This document shows positions 2,389-64,000 of a stretch of DNA of 64,000 bases, piece by piece. Source of the DNA: an uncultured Gammaproteobacteria bacterium (GTDB lineage Bacteria; Patescibacteriota; Microgenomatia; UBA8517); assembly GCA_964489145.1 (NCBI GenBank), contig CAZAXL010000001.1, positions 52,910 to 116,909 on the forward strand, in the 5' to 3' direction. How positions within the stretch are numbered: position 1 is the first letter of the stretch; every line of letters starts with the position of its first letter. A program made the translations under genes and the position numbers. The notes below the pieces were generated by a model. The model did no database searches. It saw only the letters and a list, made by a program, of their open reading frames with translations, and was not told where the DNA came from.

Positions 2389-3441
2389 TTATTTATGATA
2401 GGCTCCCAGCGCAATTCCCAACCCCATTGTTGTGGCAAGGAGGGAGGATCCTCCCGCCGAAAGAAGTGGAAAGGGTAGCCCCGTTACCGGGAGCATACCC
2501 ATATTCATGCCAACATGCACAAAAAGTTGTATCAGATAGGTCAGGAAAAACCCGGAAAGGTACGCCCGTGCCTGAGGAGAAACAGCGTGTTCCATAAAAA
2601 AGGTAAGTCTTATAAGTATTAAAAAACTAGTAAGAAGAACAAATCCAGCCCCGACTAAGCCAAGCTCTTCCGCGGTTGCTGCAAAGACAAAGTCTGTTTG
2701 TTTTTCGGGTAAAAATGCCAACTGTGTCTGAACTCCTTTTCCGAGCCCCGTTCCGAAAATTTTTCCCGATCCCGCCGCAATTGTTGCCTGGATACTATTG
2801 TAACCTGCCCCTCTCGGATCCTTAGCCGGTTCCAAAAAAGAGGTAATTCTTTGTCTTTGATAAGGAGCCATTGCACGCCAGGCAATCGGTAAAATCGCTA
2901 CACCAATTAAGAGCCCGACAATTAGGTATTTTTTATTAAATTTAGAGGCCATTAATATACCGACAAATCCGACAATGGTTAGAATAGAAACTCCCAAAGA
3001 AGGCTGCGCCAGGATAAGCACCACCGGAAGAAGGAGAAGAAGAAGTGCTTTGCTAATCTTTTTTAAGGTTACTTCTCCCCTACCCAGGTAATTTGCAAAA
3101 AATACCAAAAGAAACGGTCTGATAATTTCCGCCGGTTGAAGACTTGTTGGCCCCAGCTGAATCCACCTGACGGTATTTCTGGTAACGCTTCCTATGACAA
3201 AAGTTAAAAGAAGAAGCGCAATGCTTATAATGTACAAATACTTGGAAAATAAAGAAATAATTTCGAAATCAATCATGGAAAAAATCCAAAAAACCAGAAG
3301 CGCTGTAAAAATATAAACAAAATAAAGAGGAAAAAGATTTTTTTCCAAAGAATTTAAGATCACAACACTAAAAGCCAGTAAGAATAGTATCGACAGGCTT
3401 AGGGTAATATCTTTAAACAAAAAATTAGTAACGGAACGCAT
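2389..3441 (-). CDS. SEDS-family peptidoglycan glycosyltransferase (RodA/FtsW family). This is the second SEDS gene in the window and lies outside the dcw cluster, so it is probably RodA-like.
   Basis: 350 aa, about 10 TM segments. The C-terminal conserved SEDS block is present (PEKQTDFVFAATAEELGLVG ... LPVTGLPFPLLSAGGSS). Confidence 0.8.
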   Translation of the reverse strand: MRSVTNFLFKDITLSLSILFLLAFSVVILNSLEKNLFPLYFVYIFTALLVFWIFSMIDFEIISLFSKYLYIISIALLLLTFVIGSVTRNTVRWIQLGPTSLQPAEIIRPFLLVFFANYLGRGEVTLKKISKALLLLLLPVVLILAQPSLGVSILTIVGFVGILMASKFNKKYLIVGLLIGVAILPIAWRAMAPYQRQRITSFLEPAKDPRGAGYNSIQATIAAGSGKIFGTGLGKGVQTQLAFLPEKQTDFVFAATAEELGLVGAGFVLLTSFLILIRLTFFMEHAVSPQARAYLSGFFLTYLIQLFVHVGMNMGMLPVTGLPFPLLSAGGSSLLATTMGLGIALGAYHK

Positions 3442-3442
3442 A

Positions 3443-6400
3443 TTAGGAGGATCTTTTTACTTCAAATTTTCCTTCCTCAAGATGAGAAATTTGCGCTTTC
3501 TTCAACATCCACTGAATAAGTTTTTTACTCACGGGTAACTTTTCAATCTTAACATCAATTTTTTGAGTAAGATTTAATCCCAATTTCTTTCTTTCTTCCT
3601 GAATTTTCCTAACAATATCCCTAATGCCGGCTTCCTCCTTCAACTCAGGTGTAATCACTGTATCAAGCTCAATCTTATCCGTTCCACCGAGAAGGTCAAC
3701 CGTCTTGATATTCAGCTCGCTCTCTGCAATCTTTAAAACCTCGGAGCTGATGCTTTTTTTCTCCTGACCATATACTTTAACTTTTGAAAGTGGTTGTCTC
3801 ACCGGAATTGCCAACTCTTTTCTCTTTGCATGTACCTTTTCAACGATCTCGCGCATAGCCTGCATCTCTTTTATAAGTTCATATTCGTCGGCATTTGGCT
3901 CGGAAGGCGCCTCCGGCCAGTCGGAAAGGTGCACCGAAATCTCTTTTGTAAGATTTGTGTAAATAAAATCCGAAAGGAACGGTGTAAAAGGGGCCATCAG
4001 TTTACTTAAAATATAAAGGACATAATAAGTTGTTGAATAAAATGCGTTTGCGTCCTTTTCGGACTCTTTGACAGGGCCCACCCTATCGCGGGAACGCCTG
4101 ATATACCAAAGAGACAGGTCATCAACAAATTTTTCAATTTCGGAAGCCCCGCTTGCCGCGTCAAATTTTTCCAGGGCACTCCCCACGAGTTCTGTCGTCT
4201 GACCCAGCCTGACAAGTATCCACTTATCTAAAATGTTCGAATTTCTGCCGGGTTTTTTGTGAACTCCCGGGCGCCAATCATCGAGATTGGCATATGTCAC
4301 AAAAAAATTATAGACATTCCAGAGCTTGAGATGGAATCTTCGCCTGACCTCGTCGGCAACCTTATATCCAAAAAGTGCATTTTCAGCCGGATTTGCCTTA
4401 GCAAACATCCACCTCATAACATCGGCTCCGATTTTGTCCGCTCCTTCGTTAAACTCAATTGAATTACCCCAGCTTTTGTGCATGGCCCGTCCATCCTCGG
4501 CCAGGAGAGTTCCATATCCCAAAACGGTTTTATATGGATTTACGTCCGTAAGAACCGTACTCATGGCAATCATTGCATAAAACCAGTTCTTGAATTGTCC
4601 AGGAAAACTTTCCGTAATAAAGTCTACCGGAAACCATTTTTGCCATTCGTCCCTATCTTCGGCATACATAGGTTTGGTTTTAGTCACATCAAAACCGCAG
4701 GCTTCATTTTTCGCACTAATTGTGGAGAAAGGTACAATTCCGGCATCAAGCCAGGGATTACCCACGGGTTCAATTCTGTCCATTACCGCACCGCAGTTGG
4801 CGCACCTAACCTTAATTAAATCTATTTGGGGCTTATGGGGACTCTTGCCTTCAAAATCTTTCCAACCCGAAACTGCACGCTGCTTTAATTCCTCTTTTGA
4901 TCCGATTATCTCGAAATTGTGGCATTTAGAGCATTCCCAGATGGGAAGGGCCAGACCCCAATATCTGTTTTTCTTACTGATTAACCAATCATGCATGTTG
5001 GTCAGCCAATCCATTTCGCGGTCAAGGCCGAAACCCGGAATCCAGCTAATTTTTGCCGCTACTGTTTTCATTCTTTCCCTAAGGGTTCTTATATCAGGAG
5101 GGGTCTTAATTTCATCCTCATCGTCTTTCCACTTCTCCAATGTTGAGGTTTGGGATTTGCGGTTTGGGATTTGTGATGGCTTATCCATTGCTATATACCA
5201 TTCATCTGCCACTTTCCAAACAAGCTCGGTTTTACATCTCCAGCAAGCCGGATACCTATGGGTATATTTTTCGGTTTTATAGAAAAAGTGTTTTCCTGTT
5301 TCATCAAGCTTTCTCAGAAAGTCCAAAATCAGCTCCGGATGTTTTTTGGCATTTTCTCCGGATAAAAATCCTAAGTTCTCCATGTACGAAGCATCGTCCT
5401 TGATAATCTCAATTACAGGCAAATTCAGTTTCTTTCCAAGCCTGAAATCTTCCGATCCTGATGATGTTGCAATATGCACCATTCCCGTTCCTTCTTCCGT
5501 ATTTATGGGAAGAATCAAATCGTCGGTTGCCACAACCGTGTGAAATTTGTCATTTCTGGAAGCCTCAATTACTTTTGGTAAGTGGTCAAAAGCACCTTTA
5601 TATCTAAGGCCCATAAGCTTCGACCCTTTAGCAGTTTTAATTTCTTTTGCCTTAACTCCCGTAAAAATTCTATCTTTAGCTCCTTTGGCAACCCAGTACT
5701 TTTTGCCGTTAATCTCGACCAGCGAATAATCCAAATCAGGATCAAGTGCCACGGCAACATTGGCCGGCACTGTCCATGGGGTTGTTGTCCAGACAAGGAG
5801 ATATTCTTCTGCCTGTCCCGTGACGGGAAACGCCAAAAACACGGATTCATGAGTAAGTTCTTTATAATCCTCCGTCAGCATTTCGTGCTGGGAAATGGCG
5901 GTCTCACATCTCGGACACCAGGCTACAGCGTCCTGTCCTTTGTAAATCCATCCGGCTTCATGGCAAACCTTCAAAAAATGCCAAATCATATAGTTATTGT
6001 CATCACTCAGGGTGTAGTACGAATGATCCCAATCCATGAAGTACCCAAGGCGTTTGCTTTGTTCGGTTTGGATTCCGGAGTATTTTTTGACCCGGTCTTT
6101 ACAAAGCTGAACGAATTTATCTATGCCAAAAACTTCAATATCTTTTTTAGTCTTAAAACCAAGTTCTTTTTCAACTTCAACCTCCACCCACAGCCCCTGA
6201 CAATCAAAGCCGTTCTGGAAGCGCTCTCTATAGCCCTGCATATTCTTAAATCTCTGCCAAAGATCTTTATAGGTTCTTCCCCAGGCATGGTGTATTCCCA
6301 TGGGGTTATTGGCCGTAATTGGGCCGTCCATGAAGCTAAAATATTTCTTGGAGTTTTTATTGCGCGCCAGGTATTTTTTGACAATCCCACTCTTATACCA

Positions 6401-7833: not shown

Positions 7834-8268
7834 TCATTCCCAAGTGGCCTCTGCAACTATCTTTCCGTCACGGATGTAATAATTGAGATTTCCACCAAAT
7901 CGATTGAGGTAGCCCATGACTATTTTGGCTATACCCATTCCCCCGCCGGAGTTTTTGGTGGTCATTATTTTGCCGGACTCTTTAATTTTATTGATAAGCT
8001 TAAGGGTTCTTTCCGGATTGGGTTCAATAAAGTCGTCCTCAACCCGGAGAAAGTTGTCTGACAGGGTAATGTGAATGCTCTTGGCTCCCTTGTCCATGCA
8101 ATTGTCGGTTAATTCGCTGACTATCGCCGGAAGAAACTCGCTAATTGGTTTTTCGAGGAGTTTATCGGAAAAACCAGCTCTAAACTCAACGTTTTCCACA
8201 TTGCAGTCCAAAAGGCATTTTTTAATTTCTTCGGGGAAAGCTATAAACCTTTCTCTATCTACTGTCAT
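7834..8268 (-). CDS. Small stand-alone GHKL (histidine-kinase-like) ATPase domain protein, RsbW/SpoIIAB-like in size. It has no HisKA domain and no STAS partner.
   Basis: 144 aa. N-box-like ELTDNCMDKGAKSIHITL, G1-like VEDDFIEP and G2 GGGMGIAKIV. Confidence 0.5.
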   Translation of the reverse strand: MTVDRERFIAFPEEIKKCLLDCNVENVEFRAGFSDKLLEKPISEFLPAIVSELTDNCMDKGAKSIHITLSDNFLRVEDDFIEPNPERTLKLINKIKESGKIMTTKNSGGGMGIAKIVMGYLNRFGGNLNYYIRDGKIVAEATWE

Positions 8269-8433
8269 AGCGGCATTTTACCACTTTCCACGCTGTGTGT
8301 TTATACTCTTCAAGATTTAGACACACATCAAGGCTATTCTATTTCCAAAATTTCTCCTTCAAAAATTTGGTCGCCTGAGGCATAGGAAAAAGATTCACCT
8401 CCAGATTCTACACCAATCATATATAATTTGCGT

Positions 8434-8925
8434 ATGCTTAAAACTATAAACTCTTCAATGACAGTTGCGGGGAGGACCTCAAAAATAATTTACCATGACG
8501 CGGATAGTTTTGACGAAGTTGATCCTGCAAAAACCACTCAGGCCTACGGAGTTTGTTTTTATGGGGACAAAATGGTAATCGCCCACGGAGGAAAAAAGAA
8601 AAATTGGGGACTTGTCGGCGGAACAATTGAGGACGGGGAAACTTTTGAAGATACATTGAAGAGGGAAATTGTCGAAGAATCCAATATGGAAGTTCTGGAA
8701 TTTCTACCAATAGGCTATCAGGAGGTATCTCACGGAAAAGATTACAAAATCCAGCTCAGATATGCCTGTAAAGTTAATCCTCTGGGACCTTTTGTAAAAG
8801 ACCCCGCGGGAAGCGTTACCGAAATAAAACTTATCGATCCCGAAGATTACAAAAGATATTTTAACTGGGGAGTTGTCGGGGAGCGGATAATGGAGAGGGC
8901 TTTGGAATTGAAATCCAAATTCTGA
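8434..8925 (+). CDS. NUDIX hydrolase
   Basis: Nudix box GLVGGTIEDGETFEDTLKREIVEESNMEV (G-x5-E-x7-REUxEExGU). The track ORF begins at a TTG at 8428; the first ATG is at 8434. TATAAT at 8422-8427 is only 6 nt upstream, which suggests a leaderless start. Confidence 0.8.
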   Translation: MLKTINSSMTVAGRTSKIIYHDADSFDEVDPAKTTQAYGVCFYGDKMVIAHGGKKKNWGLVGGTIEDGETFEDTLKREIVEESNMEVLEFLPIGYQEVSHGKDYKIQLRYACKVNPLGPFVKDPAGSVTEIKLIDPEDYKRYFNWGVVGERIMERALELKSKF

Positions 8926-8928
8926 CCC

Positions 8929-9231
8929 TTAAAAAATAAGCATTGCTCCAAAAAATACCAGGAGGAATCCAAAGAGCCAAATGGTGGTTGAAATTACTGT
9001 ATCCAATGCTTCCTTTTTCTTGTCAGCTATAAAAAGCTTGTAGGGTTTGTATAAAACTATTGCCGCGCAGATGAGTGCCGACGTGGAAAAAAGAAGAAGG
9101 ACAAGAACCGGAGCGAAATACGAGTTTACTTTACCGAAAATCTCGTTCCCTTTCCAAAATATAAGTCCGACAAGGGCGCAGTAAAGGAAAACTTCCAGAG
9201 CTTGCAAAAAACCTCGCCTATTAAATAGCAT
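8929..9231 (-). CDS. Small hypothetical membrane protein (3 predicted TM segments). Last gene of the dcw-strand operon.
   Basis: 100 aa of hydrophobic stretches, co-directional and tightly spaced after the Cys-rich gene. Confidence 0.45.
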   Translation of the reverse strand: MLFNRRGFLQALEVFLYCALVGLIFWKGNEIFGKVNSYFAPVLVLLLFSTSALICAAIVLYKPYKLFIADKKKEALDTVISTTIWLFGFLLVFFGAMLIF

Positions 9232-9245
9232 TAATACATTATACC

Positions 9246-9629
9246 TTACTCGACCGGTTCAATAAAAATCGGAGATAATCCATTTTCTTTCCTGATAATG
9301 TTGCAGTCGGAACATCCGATTGCGAAGTTGCGAGCGGCATATTCGCGCTCATCATGTTTCAGACAAGATCCATCAGAAAGTCTATTCGGACAAGGGCCGT
9401 TTATTACAAGTACGTAAAAATCTCCTCCCTCAAGACCTTTTCTGGAATATTCTGTGTAATACAAACTCTGCAGGTTATCTTTCTTAATTTGTGCAAGTTC
9501 TTTCATCGAATCAACGTGAATTGCTGTGGGGAAAACTCTGGTTTTTTCCGATTTTGTGATCTCAATATCAATATCCTGACAGCAAAAACCCGGACAACCG
9601 GATTTTACACAAGGATTTCTTTCGGGCAT
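9246..9629 (-). CDS. Cys-rich putative Fe/Zn-chelating protein (YkgJ/UPF0153-like). Its start codon overlaps the ftsZ stop (TAATG).
   Basis: 127 aa with two Cys clusters, CVKSGCPGFCC and GPCPNRLSDGSC...GCSDC. The pattern resembles the CxxCxxCC-family putative metal-chelating domain. The 1-nt overlap with ftsZ suggests translational coupling. Confidence 0.5.
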   Translation of the reverse strand: MPERNPCVKSGCPGFCCQDIDIEITKSEKTRVFPTAIHVDSMKELAQIKKDNLQSLYYTEYSRKGLEGGDFYVLVINGPCPNRLSDGSCLKHDEREYAARNFAIGCSDCNIIRKENGLSPIFIEPVE

Positions 9630-56889: not shown

Positions 56890-58026
56890 TCATAATTTTG
56901 TTATTACCTCCAAGGTTTCTCTAGCTGTTTTCTCCCAGGAAAACTTTTTAGCTTGAGCTAAACCTGCTTCTTTCATACTATTATACTTCGCAATGGGTGC
57001 CAAAAGCACCTTGGTAATCCCCTCGGCAATACTATCTGTACTTTTGGGGTTAATCAGTATCCCGGCATCCCCAACCACCTCAGGCAAGCTTCCTATGTTT
57101 GAGGCAACTACAGGCACGCCGCTAGCCATGGCATTTAGGACATCGAGCCCAAATCCCTCCCAAAATGAAGGCAGGACAAATACTTTCGCACCCTTGATCA
57201 GTCCGGGCTTGTCTTCCTCAGGAACAAAATCCGTAAATATTACTTTATCTTCCATTCCTAGTTTTTTGACTTTTTCAAAAATAGATTCATACATCCAGCC
57301 CTTTTTTCCGGCAATTACCAGCTTTAAATTGGAAATTTTTAATTTATCATTAGTAATTACGGCCTTAAAGGCCGTTAGAAGGCTTTCGACATTCTTACTG
57401 GGCTTGAGAGTACCCAAATATAATACATAGTCCGTAACTATGGAGTACCTATCCCTTACACGTCGCACATCTTTTTCGGAAACACTCATATTGAACTTCA
57501 TACTGTCATATGCAAGAGGGGTAACGTAAATCTTATCTTTAGCTGAGGGGTAGTGTCGTACAATGTCGTTTTTTGTACTATTTGATATAGCAAAGACCGC
57601 TTTTGATACAAAAATGCTAATGGCACTCCATAACTTTAACTGCCAAAAGTCCTTTTTTCGAAATTGTCCCGAGAATTCGAGGTATCCAAGGTCCATAATT
57701 GAACAAAACCTGGGTATTGGGGCAATAGGAGGTGCGTAGTGGCTTGGGGAAAAGAAAACATCGCACCTGGGGTCCCCCGAAAACAGGCTCGGGGTAAGCT
57801 TGGTCAGTATCCATGCCCCCCCACCCTTAATCACTTTGTACCTGAAGAACTTCGTCTCCTTCGGTAAGTCCGCTCTAGACTCATTTTTAAGAAAAACTAT
57901 AAGTTTATGGTTATTTTTCCATTCGTCTTGTAGTTTCCAGAAATTCCACAGAAGCTCATAGGCATAAGTGTTCACTCCTACCCTTTTTTCAACATTAGCC
58001 TCGTTTCCGTCGATGCCAATAATCAT
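56890..58026 (-). CDS. Glycosyltransferase family 4 (GT-B)
   Basis: EGFGLDVLNAMASGVPVVASNIGSLPEVVGDAGILINP. Confidence 0.8.
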   Translation of the reverse strand: MIIGIDGNEANVEKRVGVNTYAYELLWNFWKLQDEWKNNHKLIVFLKNESRADLPKETKFFRYKVIKGGGAWILTKLTPSLFSGDPRCDVFFSPSHYAPPIAPIPRFCSIMDLGYLEFSGQFRKKDFWQLKLWSAISIFVSKAVFAISNSTKNDIVRHYPSAKDKIYVTPLAYDSMKFNMSVSEKDVRRVRDRYSIVTDYVLYLGTLKPSKNVESLLTAFKAVITNDKLKISNLKLVIAGKKGWMYESIFEKVKKLGMEDKVIFTDFVPEEDKPGLIKGAKVFVLPSFWEGFGLDVLNAMASGVPVVASNIGSLPEVVGDAGILINPKSTDSIAEGITKVLLAPIAKYNSMKEAGLAQAKKFSWEKTARETLEVITKL

Positions 58027-59085: not shown

Positions 59086-60429
59086 TTATTTTATATACTT
59101 CCAAAACTCAACGCCGTTCAGGTTCAGTTCCTGGACTTTATTATATCCTAAATTTTCGATTTTAATCCGCGCCATGTCCTTGGAATCAAATATCTGCCAG
59201 ACATACCTCGATAACCAAACCTCTGCAAGGTCTCTCCCTACGGAATCGAAATTCTCGAAGTAGATTATTTGTCCTCCTTTTTGGTAATAGGTAAGTGCTT
59301 CTTCTTGTGAATTTGAGGGATAAATTATAGCGTCTGCGCCAACAGCTTCCGCAACTGCCCTCCAATTTTCCCTTTGGAACTTTGGATTAAATAAATATAG
59401 AGAGGATGAGGCAATATTTATCAAAATGGCTGTGGATAAAAATATCCAAAACGTTTTACCTTTCAAACTTGTAATTCCTCCAGCCGCCAAAATGTAAAAA
59501 GCAGGAAGACAAAAAAGAAATCTGAAATAGTAAAGAATAGGAATCTTAATGCTTATCAAAATACCCAGGAGAATCGGTATGATGAGCCATGCCCAAACCA
59601 CCTTGTAGGGTCGGACCTTTAAAGGTCGTCGCACAACTAATAGGAAAGAATACAAAAGAACAGAAGCCAACGAAACCGCGCCATATAAAATTTTATTATT
59701 AAAGCTGATCCTTCCGAATATAAATTTAACAGGGATCAATGCGATATTTTTAAGCGAGATTGTACCTAGTAGGTTCCACCAGGCCGATCCCTGCACCGAA
59801 AACCCTCCCGAAAGTTGGCTCAAGAACGTTGGCAGCCAGGCTATCAATATAATAAAAAGCGGAATGTGGGCCAGAGCCAATTTTTTCCAGTCCTTATATC
59901 CTAGAAGCCAAAAAACCGGAATAATCAGAAGAGAAACATAATCGGTCATCGCCAGGATGGGTAGAAAAATAGAAAAAAGCACCCATTTCTTTTCCAGAAA
60001 TAGATAAAAAAGCAGGGTAGCCAAAAATGCGGCTAAAGAGTACATTCTGGCTTCTTGTGAGTAATAAATTAAAAGGCCGGACGTTGCCGCCAATATTGAG
60101 GCAATTCTTGCAGTTTTGTTATCAAATATTTTTTTGGCAATGAGATAAATAAAATAAATTGTCAGAATACCAAAAATAACAGAGGGGGTCCGGAGAGAAA
60201 TTTCAGACAACCCAAAGAGGCTACCCCACCCTTTCATTAAAAGATAATAAAGCGGGGGATGGAAATCTCCCGGTAGAAATTTGGTAAAAATATCCGCCAA
60301 AGGCATCTTAGCCGCAAGAGCAGTTGTTGCCTCATCAAGCCAAAGAGATTGATTAATGGATATCAGACGAAGTAGTAAACCTACAAACAAAGTCAGTGGC
60401 AGTCCGTTTTTTAGAAGAAATTTTTTCAC
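59086..60429 (-). CDS. GT-C fold membrane glycosyltransferase (PMT/ArnT-like) with DE motif in the first loop
   Basis: 447 aa polytopic. NQSLWLDEATTALAA (DE motif of PMT-like GT-C enzymes) after TM1. Confidence 0.65.
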   Translation of the reverse strand: MKKFLLKNGLPLTLFVGLLLRLISINQSLWLDEATTALAAKMPLADIFTKFLPGDFHPPLYYLLMKGWGSLFGLSEISLRTPSVIFGILTIYFIYLIAKKIFDNKTARIASILAATSGLLIYYSQEARMYSLAAFLATLLFYLFLEKKWVLFSIFLPILAMTDYVSLLIIPVFWLLGYKDWKKLALAHIPLFIILIAWLPTFLSQLSGGFSVQGSAWWNLLGTISLKNIALIPVKFIFGRISFNNKILYGAVSLASVLLYSFLLVVRRPLKVRPYKVVWAWLIIPILLGILISIKIPILYYFRFLFCLPAFYILAAGGITSLKGKTFWIFLSTAILINIASSSLYLFNPKFQRENWRAVAEAVGADAIIYPSNSQEEALTYYQKGGQIIYFENFDSVGRDLAEVWLSRYVWQIFDSKDMARIKIENLGYNKVQELNLNGVEFWKYIK

Positions 60430-61283
60430 TTTGATCCTCTTTTTGTGATTATGTATTCCAGAATACCCACAAAAATGCCAAAATCATAAACTAATTTAAA
60501 AATCATAAATTTTAAATTTAATGTTAAGAGAGATTTATAAATCCCCACAATCAGAGAAACGGGTAGTGATGCCCTAATTAAACCAGTAAAACTTCCAAAA
60601 ATTCCGAATTTGTATTTCCTCTTCCCTACCCACTTTGCATGGTTAAATATTTCACCCGGGCTTGATGGATTTTTATGGTAGAAGACGGCACCTGGTGCCA
60701 TAACCGCTTCATAGCCAAGCTTCCTACTCAGACTCCAATCGTCATCATATCCCCCTGGAGTAAACCCACCGACTTTATCAAATTCACTTTTCAGAATTGC
60801 CCTAAAAACAGGCTGGTGATCGGGGAAGTTTTTGGGGTGGCGACGTTTCTCCTCCCACCCCTCATTTATGTTCCAGCATCTTGACCAGGGATTGTCCCAG
60901 TTGGATACAATTTCTTCTTTACTGAAAGTTCCCCTTGCTCCGCGAAGCCTTGGCGAAGTGGAGTTTGTTACTATTGGCTCAATCAATTTTCCCAGAAACT
61001 CTTTGTCAAAAGTCATGTCTGCATCCACAAAAACCAGAATTTCCCCATTCGCGTGCCCTGCCCCCAAATTTCTTGCCGCACCGGCCCCCACGTGCTTCGC
61101 ACGCAATTTTCGAATTTCGAATTTCGAATTTCGAATTTCCGATAATAACTGCCAAGTGTTATCGGTTGAGCCGTCATCAACAACAATAATTTCAAAATCA
61201 GTCAAAGTTTGAAACCCCAAAGATTCTATACAATCGGATAATACTTTTTCTTCGTTGTATGTGGGAATTATTACTGAAATCAT
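60426..61283 (-). CDS. Glycosyltransferase family 2 (GT-A). Contains an in-frame heptanucleotide repeat tract.
   Basis: MISVIIPTYNEEK...EIIVVDDGSTDNT...GAGAARNLGAGHANGEILVFVDADM. Confidence 0.8.
   Translation of the reverse strand: MISVIIPTYNEEKVLSDCIESLGFQTLTDFEIIVVDDGSTDNTWQLLSEIRNSKFEIRKLRAKHVGAGAARNLGAGHANGEILVFVDADMTFDKEFLGKLIEPIVTNSTSPRLRGARGTFSKEEIVSNWDNPWSRCWNINEGWEEKRRHPKNFPDHQPVFRAILKSEFDKVGGFTPGGYDDDWSLSRKLGYEAVMAPGAVFYHKNPSSPGEIFNHAKWVGKRKYKFGIFGSFTGLIRASLPVSLIVGIYKSLLTLNLKFMIFKLVYDFGIFVGILEYIITKRGSK
61108..61139. repeat. Tandem heptanucleotide repeat (TTCGAAT)x~4.5 (also readable as TTTCGAA or CGAATTT) inside the GT2 coding sequence; encodes SEIRNSKFEIRKL
   Basis: Plus strand 61104-61140: caattt TCGAATT TCGAATT TCGAATT TCGAATT tcc. 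The unit length of 7 is not a multiple of 3. Confidence 0.8.
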
Positions 61284-62221
61284 TTTTTTAGTTCATTAAA
61301 CAAGTCTTCATACTTTTTGGCGATTTCGTCCCAGGAAAACTTTTTTGCCTGTTCTCTTGGTTTGCCTTCCCAATTTTGATTCAGTGCTTTCTCGATCGCC
61401 TTGGCATAGGCCTTTGTGTCCATCGGGTCCACGAGAATCCCTGCCTCCCCAACAATCCCGCTCCTGACAGGATCATTTGTTGCCACAACCGGCAAATTGG
61501 TGGCCATCGCTTCAACTAAAACATTTCCGAAAGACTCAGACGGCCTTGAGGGAAGTGTAAACACATCTGCGGCTCTATAGACCTCCGGCATTTTTTCAAA
61601 AGGAACCGATAAAAGTTCAAATCTGTCCTTACCTAAAATCTTTTCTCCATATCTTTCCAGCTCTCTCCTAAGCTCGCCTCCCCCGCCAACCATTAAAAGG
61701 CTTACCCCGGGAAGTTTGGCGACAGCTTTAATCGACAAATCCATTCTTTTTTGAGGAGTAAAAGCACCTCCACAAAGAACCATAGGGTTTTTAATCCTTG
61801 TTTTATACGCTCTCCCTTTTGGATTAAATTTAGTTAGGTCCACTCCGTTTGGAATATACAAAGATTTAACGCGGGGGTTGACCTCCTTTGCCCAAGCTAG
61901 AGCTTTCTTGGAAAGCGCGACAAAAGCATTGGGGCATGAATACAAATTCACTTTATCATCCCAACCCATTCCGGACTGTCCCGAAACTACCATTTTGGCT
62001 CCGGTCAGTAGGGAAATAATCCTAACCAGGACAACCTGGAATCTTCCGTTTGTCGGAATAATTACATCGTATTTGCCTTTCAGAAGGTTCAAATAGTTAA
62101 TATCTGCGATAACATCAACCTTGTAGTGCTCGGACAGGCGATTCGAAAGCTCAAAGACAAAAGTCTCCGCACCTCTGGCAACCCTATTCTGGTATTTATT
62201 CAAAATCGCTATTTTCATCAC
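61280..62221 (-). CDS. Glycosyltransferase family 4 (GT-B)
   Basis: ESFGNVLVEAMATNLPVVATNDPVRSGIVGEAGILVDP. ATGA overlap with the GT2 gene. Confidence 0.8.
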   Translation of the reverse strand: MMKIAILNKYQNRVARGAETFVFELSNRLSEHYKVDVIADINYLNLLKGKYDVIIPTNGRFQVVLVRIISLLTGAKMVVSGQSGMGWDDKVNLYSCPNAFVALSKKALAWAKEVNPRVKSLYIPNGVDLTKFNPKGRAYKTRIKNPMVLCGGAFTPQKRMDLSIKAVAKLPGVSLLMVGGGGELRRELERYGEKILGKDRFELLSVPFEKMPEVYRAADVFTLPSRPSESFGNVLVEAMATNLPVVATNDPVRSGIVGEAGILVDPMDTKAYAKAIEKALNQNWEGKPREQAKKFSWDEIAKKYEDLFNELKK

Positions 62222-62499
62222 GTTAGAGAAAGAAAACGTTTTAACCTATTTTTTAAATATCTTCTTCCCATACCCGATTTTAAATACTTTTCTCTAGCAA
62301 ATCCATCAAGCTTGTTAAGACAAGCTTCATAATATATCAACTCAAATGGACCTCTACCTTTTGTGTAAGTGGATTTGTCATTTTGATGCTCAATAAAACG
62401 TTTTCGTAGATTATTTGTACAACCAATGTACCATTTACTAGACTTTAGACTTCTCAAAACGTAAACGTATTGGTATTTGAGTTCTCTAACGTGATACAT
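62218..62499 (-). CDS. Small stand-alone GIY-YIG nuclease-domain protein (UPF0213/YhbQ-like)
   Basis: 93 aa: YQYVYVLRSLKSSKWYIGCTNNLRKRFIEHQN (GIY...YIG-type with conserved R and E) ... N at the end of the core. Overlaps both flanking genes (4 nt and 14 nt). Confidence 0.75.
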   Translation of the reverse strand: MYHVRELKYQYVYVLRSLKSSKWYIGCTNNLRKRFIEHQNDKSTYTKGRGPFELIYYEACLNKLDGFAREKYLKSGMGRRYLKNRLKRFLSLT

Positions 62500-63850
62500 A
62501 CTGTTTTTTGATCAAAATCTCGACCCCGTCAACCTTACCACTTAGTTTATAATTTTCCGTGACAAAATTGTAAACCTTTTGGGGAATATATGATGAAAGA
62601 CCGGACATTGTATAGGAATTGTAAATTATCATTTTCGGCGGATTTGCTTTCAGATCCTCCACTATTTTTTCCTGTACCCCGGGAATCTCCATGTACCAGG
62701 AAAGCTGCGGAACCCAGGGGTCGGTAGCCGGCAACGTATCTGTTAGCGCATATATGTTGTCCCACCAGTTCAGAACAAATATTCTATCCCCTGGCTTTGT
62801 GTTGTAGTTTACAAATGTCACAACATTGGCAACATTGGCTTCGTAAAATCTGGTACCTTCCTTAAAATTTCTCATGAAAAAGCCCGCGAAAAGAATTATT
62901 GAAACGGTAATGTAAACCGGAACAAATGGTTTGAATAACTTTTTTTCCTTTTTGACTTTTTCAAACACCAATCCTGTTGCAATTGCCAAAAAGGGAACTA
63001 CCGGCTGAAAATGGAAAAATTCAAACCTGGGAAACGCCCCGAGACCTCCGGCAATTGCCCAAAGTAATATATCAAGATTTTTGCGGCCGGATTTTAGAAC
63101 AAGTGGAATAAAAACCAGAAACGGGAATATTGCCACAGCCAGATTCTTGAAATCCGGGAGCTGAATTTGCCCCTGGGCTTTGGGAAGAATGAAAATTCCA
63201 AATTTTACAGCCCAGTTCCAGAAGTCCGACAAGATTCCAAATGCGGCAAGAATTACTATAAAGGGAACTATAATGGCAAGCGTTCCCGGAATAAAACTTC
63301 GGATATTCTTTTTAACCTTTAACCATTTACCATTAACCATTTCTAATCCTATGGGGATTAGAAACCAAACTGCAGTTTGCTTGGAGATAAAAGCCAATGC
63401 CCAGAAAACTCCCGTCCAAAGCCATTTTTTCTGCCTTGCAAAGTAGAAAGAACAAAAGGCCATTAGACCCATATAAAGATCGAACCAGAGTCCGTTGCCG
63501 TCGTAGAAAAGGTTCCAGAAGGCAAATACCCCAAGTGTAATAAATGCGGCTTTTATATTCCAAAGTTTTCTGACAAGGGTAAAGACGAGGCAGTCAAAAA
63601 TCAGAATCAGGAGCCAAGTAAATATTTTCAGTTGAAGTATTCCTGAACCAAAAATTTTATAGAAGATGCCCAGGTCAATCAGCATGAGAGGTGTGTGTGC
63701 TATAGCAATATCTTTATAGGGCAGCCATCCTTTTGCAATAAGGTATGGCCAAAGGCTCATTTCCGGCCAGGCAGTAAACTTTAAAACCATAAGAAGAAGC
63801 AAATGTATTAACAAAATTCCTACTAGTAAAAAATAGTCTCTTCTTTTCAT
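62486..63850 (-). CDS. Polytopic membrane protein with a C-terminal ~140-aa extracytoplasmic domain; GT-C-like glycosyltransferase candidate
   Basis: 454 aa, about 11 TM. Topology and size resemble GT-C enzymes; no DE motif was identified with confidence. Confidence 0.45.
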   Translation of the reverse strand: MKRRDYFLLVGILLIHLLLLMVLKFTAWPEMSLWPYLIAKGWLPYKDIAIAHTPLMLIDLGIFYKIFGSGILQLKIFTWLLILIFDCLVFTLVRKLWNIKAAFITLGVFAFWNLFYDGNGLWFDLYMGLMAFCSFYFARQKKWLWTGVFWALAFISKQTAVWFLIPIGLEMVNGKWLKVKKNIRSFIPGTLAIIVPFIVILAAFGILSDFWNWAVKFGIFILPKAQGQIQLPDFKNLAVAIFPFLVFIPLVLKSGRKNLDILLWAIAGGLGAFPRFEFFHFQPVVPFLAIATGLVFEKVKKEKKLFKPFVPVYITVSIILFAGFFMRNFKEGTRFYEANVANVVTFVNYNTKPGDRIFVLNWWDNIYALTDTLPATDPWVPQLSWYMEIPGVQEKIVEDLKANPPKMIIYNSYTMSGLSSYIPQKVYNFVTENYKLSGKVDGVEILIKKQYVSR

Positions 63851-64000
63851 AATTTTAAATTTTTAATTAGTAATTTGTATTTAGTATCCGGCTCTACCCC
63901 ACCAAATTACCCTTTTCATTTTCCGAAGAGGTGTTTCAAAAAAAGCTCTAAATTTAAAAGATGCTGACATTGTACTCCACGGACTTGGAATAAAATTGGG

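Follow-up and report, generated by a model that had tools for sequence, protein, structure and literature searches.

A coding heptanucleotide repeat in a Woesebacteria glycosyltransferase gene and a natural one-unit ON/OFF allele pair in a sister species

A family-2 glycosyltransferase (GT2) gene in the window, the whole 64-kb stretch of DNA analysed here, contains a perfect in-frame tandem repeat of a 7-nt unit, and slippage yields OFF alleles at this GT2 tract: one sister species carries a natural pair consisting of an ON allele with 4.57 copies and an OFF allele with 3.57 copies. We consider it somewhat probable (about 0.55) that the tract is a real slippage-prone heptanucleotide repeat that occasionally produces ON-to-OFF frameshift alleles in a dispensable glycan gene. 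High-rate, reversible and adaptive phase variation at the tract is unproven. The bacteria of the CPR (Patescibacteria) are ultrasmall and many are thought to be attached to other cells, a lifestyle in which the glycans of the envelope are probably important for attachment and for exposure to phages. The searchable literature yielded no report of repeat-driven ON/OFF variation, or of phase variation through simple sequence repeats, in CPR bacteria. The ON/OFF pair at a Woesebacteria glycosyltransferase heptamer makes the question directly testable in read sets from Rifle and other groundwater.

The tract, its gene and the consequences of unit changes

The features of the gene and the tract are as follows.
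60426..61283, minus strand: GT2 gene, 285 aa (Pfam PF00535, E=2.4e-34)
61280..61283, minus strand: ATGA overlap of the stop of the upstream GT4 gene (61280-62221) with the GT2 start, from ORF calls
60426..60429, minus strand: GTGA overlap of the GT2 stop with the GTG start of the downstream PMT_2 (GT-C-like) gene (59086-60429)
61108..61139, minus strand: perfect heptanucleotide tract, (GAAATTC)x4 + GAAA, 32 nt, codons 49-59, peptide EIRNSKFEIRK
61006..61015, minus strand: stop codons of the two shifted frames (61013-61015 and 61006-61008), which end the OFF products at 87 and 94 aa

The first-pass annotation had described a perfect tandem heptamer at 61108-61139, placed inside a GT2 gene between its DDGS and GAGAARN motifs. 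Both statements stand, with the addition that the gene lies on the minus strand, so that the tract reads TTTCGAA x4.57 on the plus strand and (GAAATTC)4.57 on the coding strand. Tandem Repeats Finder (TRF) reported period 7, 4.6 copies and 100% matches with a score of 64, the highest in the window, and the limits obtained by independent repeat extension were identical. No other perfect repeat with at least 3 copies and a period of at least 5 exists in the window; none arose in 30 block shuffles of it, and a relaxed scan of the window at periods 4 to 12 found no repeat comparable to this one. For a pattern of 3 units with up to 3 mismatches allowed, 0.01 matches are expected. The array thus exceeds chance and period 7 is over-represented in related loci, as is typical of the heptanucleotide class of long repeats.

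The DDGS and GAGAARN motifs occupy residues 36-39 and 66-72 of the protein, with the tract-encoded residues between them. The AlphaFold2 model (pLDDT 90) has a GT-A fold followed by C-terminal helices, and the tract encodes the end of a helix (43-49), a loop (50-56) and the start of a strand (57-62). A fold search with this model gave TarS, TarP, RmlT and GalT1, which are wall-teichoic-acid and related GT-A enzymes, as best matches. A precise enzyme assignment had to be abandoned, since sequence matches in the PDB, NCBIfam (no curated model at cut-off) and the fold search yield only a generic GT2/GT-A identity. Homologues occur in Microgenomates/Patescibacteria, chiefly in Ca. Woesebacteria.

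Judging from its neighbours, the GT2 gene sits in a predicted cell-envelope glycan operon of a Woesebacteria (Microgenomates, CPR) genome, from an uncultured bacterium of groundwater. Around it are genes for a GT4, a PMT_2 (GT-C-like) protein, two more GT4, a hexapeptide acetyltransferase, further GT2 enzymes and a Polysacc_synt flippase; these neighbours, together with the wall-teichoic-acid glycosyltransferase fold matches, are what was observed with regard to a surface or envelope role. The ATGA stop/start overlap of GT4 and GT2 is consistent with a translationally coupled operon, and a premature GT2 stop could uncouple translation of the downstream genes. A 93-aa GIY-YIG ORF (62218-62499, minus strand) lies between a PMT_2 gene and the GT4 gene. 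It is cleanly absent, as a gap of 281 nt, from L005, coincides with an N run in L211 and has no gene called in L001 and L002, a pattern of presence and absence suggestive of a mobile homing-endonuclease-like gene.

The unit is not a multiple of three and lies inside the ORF, 3' of the start codon, as in translational phase variation, and 4.57 copies is the in-frame (ON) length. The annotation had predicted that gain or loss of one unit would shift the frame, and simulation agreed: with one or two units added or removed, GT2 translation stops after 87 or 94 aa, and with three the frame is kept. The alternative-frame ORFs at the tract are 61013..61195 and 61006..61155. Truncation upon a unit change is seen both in simulation and in a natural allele one unit shorter, which encodes 87 + 196 aa. 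According to the mechanism we propose, slipped-strand mispairing would add or remove one unit, the resulting frameshift would end the protein after 87-94 residues, and the OFF product would lose most of the GT2 catalytic domain. The tract could then act as a low-frequency ON/OFF mutational switch, with translational phase variation as at pglE. Slippage may also occur in the organism of the window itself, where it would be expected to be reversible at some rate and might have polar effects on the coupled PMT_2 and GT4 genes; a possible adaptive value would be escape from phage or host recognition of the surface glycan.

The ON/OFF allele pair and the frequency of OFF copies

When the two predicted frameshift tails of the window allele were used as queries, one protein was found, P0122, of 87 aa. 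It is the product predicted for the gene of L011, the orthologue in Ca. Woesebacteria GW2011_GWA1_41_7, after loss of one unit, and it is encoded at locus L211, a 76-kb scaffold from sample SAMN03203002. The tract of L211 is (GAAATTC)3.57 and its GT2 gene is split into ORFs of 87 and 196 aa; with one unit added back, the gene encodes 278 aa and its product has the same sequence as the ON protein KKS17315.1. The locus belongs to a sister Woesebacteria species, of which four other assemblies match it at 99.5% (L218), 99.4% (L220), 99.1% (L011/L219) and 97.2% (L217) identity. In those four the tract comprises four full units (4.57 copies) and the GT2 gene is intact, and in each comparison with L211 the single gap is one 7-nt unit. 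The gene copies of L211 and L011 differ by 4 SNPs, 3 of them downstream of the frameshift, and all are synonymous, which makes the frameshift recent and means that purifying selection acted on the gene until recently. L211 therefore carries an OFF allele of an otherwise intact gene rather than a decaying pseudogene. The annotation had proposed to look for unit-number differences among relatives; one such difference was found, between L211 and its conspecifics, and the number is fixed in the 13 window contigs and across the roughly 50 in-frame copies.

The 25-nt tract of the assembled OFF allele has the length expected from a small-k de Bruijn collapse. However, the pipeline that produced L211 preserved the 32-nt tract in L001, L002 and L218, which counts against a systematic assembly collapse in L211. 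L211 and L218 also differ by a second indel, of 14 nt or 2 units, in a TTAATGA-like tract that closes a methyltransferase gene and lies just 5' of the PMT_2 start (L218 ~362-395, L211 ~1387). Apart from the N run, which is a scaffold gap, heptamer units are the sole indels in the aligned regions of these two loci. On these data, the principal indel hotspots of the loci are heptamer tracts.

Among assembled GT2 copies there is 1 OFF allele against about 50 in-frame ones, a ratio among consensus assemblies that argues against a very high switching rate. A contingency locus of this kind would be expected to switch reversibly at about 1e-5 to 1e-2 per division. The exact protein of the window occurs on 13 contigs from at least 10 samples (99-100% DNA identity), all with 4.57 copies, so that polymorphism in repeat number is present in the sister species while the 13 assembled contigs of the window population are uniform. 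Clustering at 90% identity gave, for the sister species, 11 full-length variants on about 19 contigs, versus the one OFF allele, and P0021, of the L014 lineage, was found on 13 contigs. Only two lengths, 3.57 and 4.57 copies, were met among assembled GT2 copies with the GAAATTC unit, and long arrays were absent.

Exact look-ups of the predicted OFF products and of the products with three units more or fewer were negative for the window allele, as were those of the shifted products for L014, L069, L031 and L075. The L011 product with one unit added was likewise absent, leaving its counterpart with one unit removed (P0122) as the sole match. No match was obtained with the concatenated frameshift tails of eight other lineages, no record with the C-terminal piece that an OFF allele would leave in the window species, and no frameshift at the tract site in a scan of 78 genome loci. 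The GT2 gene of L062 is truncated at the N-terminus from a cause other than a tract frameshift. An automated search for tracts at which one unit more or fewer merges ORFs told us little: most of the cases it flagged lay on high-GC contigs, and the positive control was missed because its tract lies near the N-terminus.

The nearest described parallel is pglE of Neisseria, in which a coding heptanucleotide repeat governs phase variation of a protein-glycosylation glycosyltransferase (PMC7157529). Both have a 7-nt unit in a glycosyltransferase ORF of a surface-glycan pathway, a frameshift upon a change of one unit, and ON and OFF alleles among strains of one species. Unlike pglE, the present tract has a GAAATTC unit, is found with 3.57 and 4.57 copies only and gives no sign of frequent switching, and its host is an uncultured CPR bacterium. 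Pentanucleotide tracts of at least 3 copies have already been classed as hypermutable (PMC4235727). The annotation had called the tract a classic contingency-locus arrangement; a low-copy non-triplet repeat in a GT2 gene of a glycan operon that occasionally slips to OFF is what was found, and on present evidence the word classic goes too far. Fixed copy number with synonymous drift, which it had named as counting against a switch, was seen in part, in the 13 window contigs, in the roughly 50 in-frame copies and in L213/L214, and so was an orthologue without the repeat in an otherwise conserved gene (L012).

Evolution of the tract site

The closest genome, L012 (UBA8517), is 93% identical to the window in DNA over 2 kb, and at the tract site it has unrelated non-repeat sequence, the tract being absent though the rest of the gene is mostly 95-100% identical. 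Identity between the two falls at GT2 nt 60-215 and at nt 276-355. Two segments of the gene stand out.
61069..61166, minus strand: mosaic segment carrying the tract, gene nt 118-215, from sliding-window identities and a mismatch map
60929..61008, minus strand: second hypervariable GT2 segment, gene nt 276-355, from an identity map and the AlphaFold2 model

Over nt 118-215 the window gene is 98-100% identical to the L011 lineage, to which it is otherwise about 73% identical, and 45-60% identical to L012. With L216 it agrees perfectly as far as nt 655, beyond which identity is 45-60%. Going by these identity profiles, the GT2 gene is a recombination mosaic. The second segment has 30-35% identity to L012, versus 95-100% over most of the gene, and contains a relatively GC-rich extra stretch of 21 nt relative to most orthologues, TCCACTTCGCCAAGGCTTCGCGGAGCAAGG, which encodes a low-confidence loop (residues 108-113) in the model.

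Nearly all of the best 120 homologues have 30 residues between DDGS and GAGAARN, whether the repeat is present or absent, and this constant spacing rules out that the tract is a 21-nt insertion. The connector between the two motifs is thus fixed in length and free in sequence. The base-perfect 32-nt tract occurs in L011/L217, L014 and L212, lineages that are 68-73% identical in DNA outside it; L213/L214 have one synonymous C-to-T interruption, and the unit of L066 is GAAATCC. Other orthologues have different period-7 units at the same site and with the same spacing, namely (AATTTTC)4.9 in L069, (ACTGTTC)4.4 in L031 and (AGTTTAC)4.3 in L075, and further units are AATTTCC (L038), ATCACCA (L047) and AGTCACA (L067). 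Decayed period-7 versions are found among the remaining orthologues, and the tract site holds the gene-wide maximum of lag-7 self-similarity in 29 of 72 orthologues. Base-perfect tracts in diverged lineages, together with the varied period-7 units at one site, suggest recurrent slippage and homogenisation.

In-frame GC-rich insertions of 18-36 nt split the heptamer tract at the GT2 site of L071, L048 and L017. They add 6-12 aa to the DDGS-GAGAARN spacing, and some are self-complementary, such as CCGCGAAGCGG in L048.

Heptamer tracts in other genes and competing explanations

The 508 kb surrounding the orthologues contain 13 perfect tracts with 3 or more copies at period 7, 3 at period 5 and none at periods 6 and 8-12, and several of the heptamer ones lie in the neighbouring genes for PMT_2, GT4 and a methyltransferase. 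Scanning metagenome sequence for (GAAATTC)3 returned at least 120 loci, with no GT2 copies among the matches listed. Among these matches the tracts measure 21-37 nt (one 45 nt), cluster at 25-27 and 30-34 nt, and lie in frame in either orientation in many unrelated proteins; hosts confirmed by Pfam are LeuRS, IleRS, MurG, UppS, GatA, GatB, LepA, PolA and LigA. In the 673 kb of metagenome contigs listed there are another 41 heptamer tracts, built of other units, versus at most 4 tracts for any other period of at least 5, and in the metagenome loci period 7 accounts for 173 tracts versus the same maximum. These loci were chosen by their GAAATTC unit, so the apparent conservation of that unit is inflated. 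Proteins with only 39% (UppS, L188/L197) and 48% (GatA, L200/L208) identity carry identical tracts of 33-35 nt at the same position; L178/L179 (LeuRS) also have (GAAATTC)n at the same position, and DNA identity in the UppS, GatA and LeuRS pairs is 50-57%. As perfect tracts persist in essential genes, in which an OFF state would be lethal, perfection and conservation are no evidence of selection for switching.

According to published surveys, as cited in PMC4692102 and PMC4679880, heptamers are the most abundant class of long repeats in many bacteria, a polymerase-slippage bias is proposed as the cause, and prokaryotic examples include GGGAATC in Xanthomonas, GGGGA(T/C)T in Nostoc, TAACTGA in Beggiatoaceae and repeats in Calothrix. 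The present tracts resemble them in the excess of period 7, in short arrays (2-6 copies), in the recurrence of a unit at many loci, in inverted pairs and in length and sequence varying between close relatives, whereas the described cases are mostly intergenic and ours are in frame, occur in essential genes as well and keep fixed orthologous sites. With one coding copy in the 64-kb window, the tract does not behave as a genome-specific dispersed heptamer of the cyanobacterial, Xanthomonas or Beggiatoaceae type. Small in-frame repeated elements in coding genes reportedly include the palindromic elements of Rickettsia and the small dispersed repeats of Nostoc, the latter said to have been described by Elhai et al. 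in 2008. The tracts are like these in being short, partly palindromic and tolerated within ORFs at variable protein regions, and differ in that they replace sequence with no net change of length, as opposed to an insertion of 100-150 bp.

The period-7 excess allows a plainer account of the GT2 tract, namely that it is an incidental coding microsatellite arising from a general 7-nt slippage bias and that the single OFF allele is a dead-end null or an assembly error. We hold this to be unlikely but far from negligible. Period 7 dominates the long repeats around the orthologues (13 against 0 at periods 6 and 8-12) and in the listed contigs (41 further tracts against at most 4 per other period), heptamers rank first among long repeats in the surveys mentioned above, (GAAATTC)n lies in frame in the nine genes from LeuRS to LigA, and about 50 ON copies stand against one OFF copy, with L012 doing without the tract. 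However, the OFF allele differs from the conspecific ON allele by exactly one unit, its SNPs relative to L011 are all synonymous, the L211 locus has a second heptamer indel and the pipeline assembled 32-nt tracts correctly elsewhere; moreover, a tract that slips in a dispensable gene gives ON/OFF heterogeneity whether or not this is selected. Far smaller still is the chance, which we put close to nil, that the tract belongs to a tRNA-like or otherwise structured RNA. This idea draws on a sequence resemblance between TTCGAAT and the T-loop, yet ARAGORN found no tRNA or tmRNA in 60000-62500, the best Rfam hit was to a miRNA and fell below threshold (19.5 bits where 82 are required, E=0.68) and the tract is inside a well-supported ORF. 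With the ARAGORN and Rfam negatives a tRNA/T-loop identity is refuted for practical purposes, as the annotation had already supposed from the coding context.

Upkeep at the level of DNA or RNA is a different kind of explanation: the tracts would be dispersed, partly self-complementary heptamer elements of about 32 nt, kept base-perfect or rewritten by gene conversion, protein binding or another process directed at the tract, for reasons that have nothing to do with frameshifting. To this we assign a small probability. It would accommodate the GAAATTC unit at 120 or more metagenome loci and the clustering of lengths at 25-27 and 30-34 nt, the identical tracts in the diverged UppS and GatA pairs, the inverted tract pairs and the mosaic patch moved between lineages. 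Of the 15 most frequent tract strings among the matches listed, those of at least 30 nt nearly all start with (G)AAATTCG, and for the single strand of the GT2 tract a hairpin with -8.7 to -11.1 kcal/mol is predicted. Against it, this folding is not significant for the tract alone (z = -1.5 versus shuffles), the orthologues use many unrelated units, the metagenome sample was itself selected for GAAATTC, and there is one copy in the window. The flanks of the listed tracts show no conserved motif, no target-site duplication and no defined termini. A mobile-element model fails for the same lack of conserved flanks and target duplications.

Slippage with occasional OFF alleles is thus the reading we prefer for the GT2 gene, and what still lacks an explanation is the occurrence of in-frame heptamer tracts at conserved sites of essential genes. 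It is a doubtful proposition, though one that could be framed from these data, that heptamer tracts at fixed, sequence-tolerant gene sites in CPR and other uncultured bacteria form an undescribed class of 25-34 nt that is actively maintained or rewritten. If so, (G)AAATTCG x4 would be its partly self-complementary form and essential genes would be among its hosts, and tracts would stay base-perfect while genes diverge to 39-48% protein identity and units change or mosaic patches swap. This would imply an active process aimed at the tracts themselves, for example gene conversion of a misaligned or ectopic kind, and ON/OFF variation of glycan genes would be a by-product or a co-opted use. Fixed-site heptamer tracts in many genes bear on the long-noted and unexplained excess of 7-nt repeats in bacteria.

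Several further tracts were seen in passing. Inverted (GAAATTC)n pairs 40-100 nt apart occur in L109, L152, L170, L187 and L198, mostly high-GC contigs, an arrangement like that of the convergent GGGAATC pairs reported from Xanthomonas. Heptamer arrays of 60-65 nt with 8.6-9.3 copies of GC-rich units are present on the high-GC contigs L126 (480-588) and L156 (1596-1660), which indicates that tract length is not universally capped at about 5 copies. The 6.8-kb locus L069 has three perfect heptamer tracts (3143-3176, 5393-5426 and 5474-5503), with (AATTTTC)4.9 in both its GT2 gene and a methyltransferase-like gene and (AAGTGTC)4.3 in the latter as well.

Within the window, the minus-strand PMT_2 gene at 62486-63850 contains an imperfect TTAACCA x4.3 tract (63312-63341, 86% matches), whose counterpart in L005 has a different, AAGTACA-like heptamer unit, and a degenerate period-7/14 tract at 63858-63886 lies immediately upstream of the start of this gene at 63850. 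At ~57330-57370, in a GT4 gene of the same operon, the window has non-repeat AT-rich sequence. L003, which is about 97% identical to the window overall, has a perfect (AGAATCA)x4 there, inside its gene 8249-9376 and with a length difference of 12 nt, making this another strain difference between presence and absence of a tract.
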